DNA from: Escherichia phage vB_vPM_PD112
Sequence record: NC_054928.1
Reading direction: 5' to 3' (one strand)
DNA: 64,000 nucleotides
Every line of letters starts with the position of its first letter. Position 1 is the first letter of the stretch. Shown here piece by piece: positions 14,168-15,496 of this stretch. The notes below the pieces were generated by a model. It had not been told where the DNA came from. It did not search any database and saw only the letters and a program-made list of their open reading frames with translations. The translations under genes were made by a program, and so were the position numbers.

Positions 14168-15290
14168 TTACACTGCCATTTTTCCTTTAATAGGAGGGTG
14201 TGATTCATAACCTTTAAGAACGAAATCTTTAGGCCTGAGTTTAAGAACATATTTTAATTGTTCTTTAGTAGAAAGATAGCGGAATTTATAAGGTAGACCA
14301 CTTATTACCAGTTCACAAAGCTCTTTAGGTTCACGACGTAAAATTTCTTTACACTGTTCTACGTGATTCATATAGATATGAGTATTACCACCAGAAAATA
14401 TCAAATCTCCTGGAATAAGATTACACATCTTAGCTACAATATGAACTAACGCAGCATATGATGCAATATTAAATGGAAGCATTATGTTCAGATAAGGTCG
14501 TTAATCTTATCCCGGAATTATATCCAGCTGCATGTCACCATGCAGAGCAGACTATATCTCCAACTTGCTAAAGCAAGTTGTCTATCGTTTCGAGTCACTT
14601 GACCCTACTCCCTAAAGGGATAGTCGTTAGGCATTTATGTAGAACCAAAGTCCTACAATTTAGCACGGGATTGTCTACTAGAGAGGTTCCCCGTTTAGAT
14701 AGATTACAAGTATAAGTCACCTTATACTCAGGCCTAAATTAACCCAAGAAAACATCTACAGAACGTTGATACCACTGCAAATCCAAATAGCCATTACGCA
14801 CATTAAACTGATAGAACATGTGACAAGGCGGTAATGCCATTTGCTTAAGTTCAGCTGGATTCCATGCAGAAACAATTTGACGCCTATCATTCGGCAGTTT
14901 TTTAATACGATCAATAACTTCTATAATTTGGTCTACACCGCCAAAATCACGCCATTGTTTTCCATAAATTGGACCAAGTTCACCGCTATGATATCCTAAA
15001 TCTTTTGCTTGATTTTCGTAATTTTCATCCCAGACTGTTTTGCCTTGAATTAATGAATTATGTTGAATTAATCGCAAATCATTTACGTTAGTACTTCCTG
15101 ATAAGAACCACAATAACTCAGAAATACATGCATTCCAGGCGAGCTTCTTAGTCGTTACTGCAGGAAAACCTTTAGTTAAATCCCAACGTAATTTAGTACC
15201 GAACAAAGCAATTGTTCCTGTGCCTGTTCGGTCATCGGTTTCATAACCGTTTTCCAGGATATCTTTAATTAAAAATTGGTATTGTTTCAT
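14168..15290 (-). CDS. td: thymidylate synthase, split by group I intron: exons 15290..14742 and 14479..14168 (286 aa spliced)
   Basis: Exon 1 ends VDVFLG, exon 2 begins LPFNIASYA; spliced product matches recalled T4 TS; start MKQYQ at 15290. Confidence 0.92.
14480..14741 (-). other. group I self-splicing intron in td, ORF-less (262 nt; no I-TevI-like ORF)
   Basis: Begins UAAUUUAGGCCUGAGUAUAAGGUGACUUAUACUUG, ends CUUAUCUGAACAUAAUG; matches recalled T4 td intron core. Confidence 0.85.
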
Positions 15291-15496
15291 TAGTTCATCC
15301 AAGAATATGTAGAAGGATATTTGGCAAAGTTAGGCTTATATCCTAATTTAACCATTTGTTTTGCTTTGCGAGTAAATCCTAAAGAACGCTCACCTTTAAG
15401 ATATTGTTTTGGTGTCATAGGCCCTTGATGCATCTGCCGACAAATAAAAAGAGCCATAGCATTAGGAACATCCTTAACTTTTAATTTATTGCTCAT
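15290..15496 (-). CDS. small basic hypothetical protein inserted between frd and td
   Basis: 68 codons; start overlaps frd stop (ATGA), stop overlaps td start. Confidence 0.45.

Follow-up and report, generated by a model that had tools for sequence, protein, structure and literature searches.

A small basic gene between frd and td is one of two alternative cassettes at this junction of T4-like phages

In phage T4, the genes for dihydrofolate reductase (frd) and thymidylate synthase (td) overlap directly. The DNA analysed here, a stretch of 64,000 nucleotides from Escherichia phage vB_vPM_PD112 (NC_054928.1; the window), has a basic ORF of 68 codons between the two genes. Is this ORF an accessory gene, the remnant of an inserted element or no gene at all, and how does the junction compare with that of other T4-like phages? 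The gene order on the minus strand is frd, the 68-aa ORF and td exon 1. The frd gene (15493–16077, minus strand) was taken from the ORF list, matches Pfam DHFR_1 (PF00186, E = 1.8e-18) and is annotated as DHFR in ON229909.1. The ORF (15290–15496, minus strand) has 68 codons and a stop codon. Its ATG (15496–15494) overlaps the frd stop codon TGA (15495–15493) in the motif ATGA (15493–15496, minus strand). Its TAA (15292–15290) has one base in common with the td ATG (15290–15288), forming the motif TAATG (15288–15292, minus strand). Both motifs were read directly from the sequence and confirm every detail of the sequence-only reading, which had described a 68-codon basic ORF overlapping frd and td. 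The GC content of the ORF is that of the neighbouring genes. Paralogues were absent from the 64-kb window and from the RB69 and RB49 loci.

The td gene is split. Exon 1 (14742–15290, minus strand) encodes the N-terminal 183 aa of thymidylate synthase (Pfam Thymidylat_synt, PF00303, E = 1.4e-63). Its end was placed by the T4 junction, which we take to be TTGGGT followed by TAATT. A group I intron of 262 nt without an ORF follows (14480–14741, minus strand; Rfam RF00028, 73.8 bits, E = 3.5e-18, the full model, positions 1–253), and then exon 2 (14168–14479, minus strand), which is in the ORF list and is annotated as thymidylate synthase in ON229909.1. The intron of the window has no I-TevI reading frame, unlike the T4 td intron, which is 1 kb long and encodes I-TevI. 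Short or reduced td introns were found in about 35 phage records. Relatives with an intron have mostly retained the endonuclease; many others have an intronless td.

The region of the ORF is 100% identical to Escherichia phage vB_EcoM_CE1 (ON229909.1, Tequatrovirus). There the ORF is an annotated CDS, the 'hypothetical protein' URG13158.1, and it is annotated in more than 100 further records. The labels 'flagellar biosynthesis protein' in PYPS2T (MH809535.1/NC_054944.1) and 'DUF4858' in Shinka (MZ502379.1) have no support from Pfam or NCBIfam and look like annotation errors. Other differences from T4 lie nearby. The homologue of nrdA.1 (13601–13930, minus strand) is broken in comparison to T4 by one additional G in a G-run and one missing A in an A-run, about 57 nt apart. 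Only ORF fragments of 36–41 aa are left in this region, where CE1 is without annotation. The broken nrdA.1 may be either a pseudogene or a product of homopolymer sequencing errors. A second extra ORF of 80 aa (16080–16322, minus strand; no Pfam match) is located between frd.1 (16333–16575, DUF5417) and frd, a place where T4 has only a gap of 71 nt.

The direct overlap of the frd stop and the td start in T4, stated in the sequence-only reading, was verified in the reference NC_000866: frd (145109–145690) and td (end at 145112) share the four nucleotides of ATGA, with no ORF between them. This overlap has reportedly been described by Purohit and Mathews (1984). The 68-aa ORF was sought in the T4 reference annotation and is not there. 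The alignment to T4 shows exactly 207 additional nucleotides in the window, directly after ATGA, and the insert ends with CTAATGA. The view of the ORF as extra against a T4 norm was misleading, since the T4-type empty junction is a rare allele in Tequatrovirus. A probe with the T4 junction (401-nt query) revealed three locus sizes in this genus: 401, about 607 and about 817 nt. Single-piece matches to the empty junction were confined to T4 isolates and close kin (T4T, RB55, RB59, vB_EcoM_112, G28, F1, FN, FL12 and FL18). The allele of about 607 nt, present in the window and in about 134 Tequatrovirus-like records, contains the 68-aa ORF, named here cassette B. The allele of about 817 nt contains cassette A, the gene RB32ORF229c (phrog_1928), which encodes a protein of 115 aa without a Pfam match; at an identity of at least 90%, it is present in about 363 Tequatrovirus records. 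Cassette A loci include RB51 (1703–2118 of locus L012), Bas35 (L013) and Ge15 (L014). The textbook overlap of T4 is thus a minority allele in the genus of T4.

Other genera add to this picture. The Mosigvirus RB69 has an empty junction with the same ATGA motif as T4. Marfa and Serratia phage 4S have both cassettes, CIP9 has two paralogues of cassette A together with cassette B, and the RB49 junction is occupied by two other small ORFs. The frd/td junction of T4-like phages is polymorphic: as a cassette site, it exists in at least four states, namely empty, A, B and A plus B. Cassette A is bordered by a 9-bp direct repeat, TAAATGAAA, which duplicates the overlap motif. Cassette B has exactly 207 nt and is bounded by two copies of AATGA, so that its gain or loss leaves frd and td intact and coupled by an overlap. 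Copies of the overlap motif lie at both ends of either cassette, so that recombining them would restore precisely the T4 sequence TATAAATGAAACAATACC. The empty junction TATAAATGAAACAATACCAA is common to T4 (7110–7113 of locus L002) and RB69 (8360–8410 of locus L024), which belong to different genera. A firm claim that the T4 overlap is a derived deletion was dropped after the same empty junction was seen in RB69.

These alleles bear on the choice between accessory gene and remnant that the first reading had left open. The accessory part stood: the ORF is missing in T4 and RB69 and is present in about one quarter of the Tequatrovirus records. The remnant part did not stand, as the homologues are complete proteins of 66–96 aa with dN much below dS. 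The 68-aa ORF is an ordinary accessory gene that has already been annotated, neither a new element nor a relic. Mosaic sites of this kind are known from T4-like genomes, and cassette B is one of the two cassettes that alternate here. The ORF should stay in the annotation as a real CDS, with little importance beyond housekeeping. T4 offers a precise, scar-free natural deletion allele, with which an accessory role, for example, in host range or counter-defence, could easily be tested.

The coding nature of the ORF was evaluated with Nei-Gojobori counts for the window, JS98, Marfa, 4S and CIP9. Ten distant pairs had a pN of 0.13–0.29 for the 68-aa ORF, versus a near-saturated pS of 0.53–0.84. The pN of the ORF was below that of frd in every pair, and between the window and Marfa (0.128) it was also below that of td exon 1 (0.163). 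This substitution pattern indicates that the ORF is a genuine, selectively maintained protein gene under purifying selection. The shortness of the ORF, the lack of a known domain and the missing annotation in the records of JS98, JS10 and SH7 could suggest a chance ORF, or that only a non-coding spacer or an RNA element separates frd and td. The probability of this is practically nil, as the amino acid sequence is conserved down to 33–44% identity in unrelated phages, dN is much below dS, the RNA fold is no better than that of shuffled sequences (z = +0.86) and Rfam has no match inside the ORF.

The 68-aa protein belongs to the family PHROG 9550. Residues 1–68 align to positions 1–68 of the 68 positions of the phrog_9550 profile (E = 1.3e-45, 154.5 bits), a significant match over the full length. 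The statement that the ORF has no obvious family therefore holds for a functional family, but not for a sequence family, as the protein is a full-length PHROG 9550 member annotated in ON229909.1. A tblastn search with the ORF detected 236 phage records, and 234 of them cover at least 80% of the query. About 132 records have an identity of at least 95%; these are Tequatrovirus and Dhakavirus phages such as JS98. Identities are about 80% in Klebsiella Marfavirus, 68% in Enterobacter phage CIP9 (Kanagawavirus) and 60% in Serratia phage 4S. About 70 records of Phapecoctavirus, the phAPEC8 group, which is not T4-like, have about 43% identity. The homologues align from the start codon. A profile search in 1.84 billion representative proteins yielded 10 genuine clusters, all of 70–96 aa and aligned from the initiator methionine. 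An eleventh match, the only one longer than 96 aa, was an artefact from a eukaryotic repeat protein. A scan of IMG/VR added only 9 further loci, mostly from the same phages.

Scans with Pfam, NCBIfam and PADLOC gave no match for the ORF and 22 family members. PADLOC covers defence proteins, not anti-defence proteins, so that this null result does not speak against an anti-defence role. A profile search of the PDB had no match for the 68-aa protein at E values up to 10. A literature search by family name, sequence string and RB32ORF229c, and for frd/td of T4-like phages, found nothing about the 68-aa ORF. PHROG 9550 is a small family without assigned function, structure or literature, and it is tightly conserved, more so than DHFR.

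The comparison with the Dhakavirus JS98 revealed a different pattern from that of the distant pairs. The ORF of the window differs from that of JS98 at only 4 of 207 nt (pS 0.076), versus a pS of 0.40 for frd and 0.78 for td exon 1. The near-identical tract extends from ATGA to about 40 nt into td. Judged from this tract, cassette B was recently exchanged between Tequatrovirus and Dhakavirus by recombination. A constraint at the nucleotide level does not explain the identity, because synonymous sites vary in the distant pairs. Transfer of the cassette from phage to phage likely relies on homologous recombination within the conserved sequences at the frd 3' end and the td 5' end.

That the ORF is the decayed remnant of a larger mobile element, for example, the DNA-binding tail of a free-standing homing endonuclease, is very improbable. 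The location would suit such an origin. The frd/td junction is a hot spot for insertions, and T4-like genomes have many free-standing endonuclease genes between conserved genes, such as mobE and segG. The BASEL records call the alternative cassette A a 'putative homing endonuclease', a label for which the scans of RB32ORF229c gave no domain support. The ORF itself does not behave like a decayed gene. Each homologue is complete and has the same start, and none is found within a longer protein; the purifying selection is strong. Homing endonuclease domains (GIY-YIG, HNH, LAGLIDADG) were not found in the ORF and 22 family members with Pfam and NCBIfam. The ORF is unlike cassette A, which is itself without an endonuclease domain. 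Terminal repeats, inverted or direct, are absent from the flanks of the ORF beyond the 5-nt AATGA. The remnant explanation is effectively refuted. Related candidates were also rejected. A truncated cassette A or a copy of another local ORF is not supported by sequence similarity (BLASTP for cassette A). The PeSL cassettes of T4-type phages, reportedly described by Arbiol et al. (2010), consist of a mobile gene flanked by an early promoter and a stem-loop. The borders of the ORF have no promoter-like or terminator-like site, and the RNA fold is unremarkable.

Both ends of the ORF have the overlap expected for a translationally coupled operon gene. The ORF always adjoins the 5' end of td in five T4-like lineages: Tequatrovirus, Dhakavirus, Marfavirus, Kanagawavirus and Serratia phage 4S. 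A stop/start overlap of 1 or 4 nt connects it directly with td in JS98, Marfa, Serratia phage 4S and CIP9. The overlap is annotated in the latter three and can be read from the sequence of JS98, where the ORF is unannotated. The ORF is likely transcribed within the prereplicative frd-td-nrd message. A convincing Shine-Dalgarno sequence is missing before its ATG; the nearest GGA lies 12 nt upstream. Because of this, ribosomes coming from frd probably translate the ORF by termination and reinitiation at ATGA, as they would translate td in T4. Termination at TAATG would then feed ribosomes on to td, which has a weak GGA 7 nt before its ATG.

The protein has a mass of 7.9 kDa and a pI of 10.26, with 10 lysines and 3 arginines versus one aspartate and one glutamate. 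An AlphaFold2 model based on an alignment of 22 sequences had a mean pLDDT of 82.5 and helices at residues 13–24, 29–38 and 43–50. With a shallower alignment, the model was unusable (pLDDT 54). A conserved basic N-terminal arm with the pattern M-S/K-N/G-x-K-x-K-V precedes the helices. In the family alignment, K34 does not vary at all, and K4, K6 and R20 hardly vary. A Foldseek search of the BFVD matched only a family member. The best matches in the PDB were homeodomains and were non-significant (E at least 1.4). Homeodomain-like three-helix DNA-binding domains may share with the predicted model the basic N-terminal arm followed by three helices.

Outside the T4-like phages, in phAPEC8 and on three metagenomic contigs, the homologue is located in long arrays of small unknown genes. 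Among the genes compared, about three on each side, neither td nor frd nor any shared neighbour was present. This argues for a protein that acts on its own, and possibly not as a partner of thymidylate synthase. It may have an early role, accessory or in host takeover, through binding to a macromolecule of the host. The charge and the three-helix architecture would point to a nucleic acid as the most likely target. Confidence in such a stand-alone early accessory protein with a macromolecular, probably nucleic acid, ligand is low. The protein may be dispensable for basic phage growth, as T4, RB69 and most Tequatroviruses are without the ORF. The explanation as a whole, a genuine 7.9-kDa basic and mainly alpha-helical protein, encoded by a cassette gene with coupled translation and having a stand-alone early accessory role, is considered probable.

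The strongest competitor links the function of the protein to thymidylate synthase or to the dNTP-synthesising enzymes of the phage. The 68-aa protein could then serve as a small subunit or a chaperone, or it could regulate the enzyme or the translation of td. The gene would be kept 5' of td and translationally coupled to it for a fixed proportion of both products. The position fits: the ORF lies 5' of td with an overlap, invariantly in the five T4-like lineages despite saturated synonymous sites. The rate of evolution also fits, being lower than that of DHFR and, between the window and Marfa, lower than that of exon 1 of thymidylate synthase. T4, RB69 and most Tequatroviruses, however, have a functional thymidylate synthase without the ORF, and the homologues of Phapecoctavirus and of the metagenomic contigs have neither td nor frd nor a shared neighbour among the genes compared. 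The presence of the ORF is also unlinked to the intron status of td: it occurs with an intronless td in JS98, pSs-1 and P922, with an ORF-less intron in the window and with an I-TevI intron in CHD2BS1 and LF73P1. A link to thymidylate synthase is thus unlikely, if worth keeping in mind.

The stand-alone accessory protein also has a more far-reaching form. The protein would have a new DNA- or RNA-binding fold and act as an early host-takeover or counter-defence factor in several phage groups, and the frd/td junction would be a docking site for swapped cassettes. This combination is decidedly unlikely. If true, unrelated groups of large virulent enterobacterial phages would use the 68-aa protein, which would be the founding member of a small fold. 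The cassettes phrog_9550 and phrog_1928 would be swapped at the overlap motif, also across genera, and the translational coupling of the operon would be left undisturbed.

The 68-aa ORF can be compared with three further known systems. The first is its own family. PHROG 9550 proteins such as URG13158.1 of CE1 and YP_009850431.1 of Klebsiella phage Marfa have the same length and N-terminus as the protein of the window, and the members in T4-like phages are encoded at the same site 5' of td. The ORF of the window is a member of this family and does not differ from it. The second is RB32ORF229c/phrog_1928, found in RB51, RB27, RB33, HP3, Bas35 and others at the same frd/td site. It is also a small protein without known function, the overlap motif is duplicated at the borders of its gene, and both genes are present together in Marfa, 4S and CIP9. 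The sequences are unrelated, and phrog_1928 proteins are longer (111–126 aa). In Tequatrovirus, short spacers lie between the phrog_1928 gene and its neighbours frd and td, and it lacks the overlap coupling of the 68-aa ORF.

The third system is the frd/td overlap of T4. The direct T4-type overlap is replaced in the window by the 207-nt insertion, which separates frd and td. The ATG within ATGA is the td start in T4 and RB69. In the window it is the start of the ORF, and td begins 207 nt downstream at a second (T)AATGA. The motif ATGA and its flanks TATAAATGA...AACAATACCAA are the same in T4 and the window, and the window keeps the logic of this overlap at both ends of the insert.
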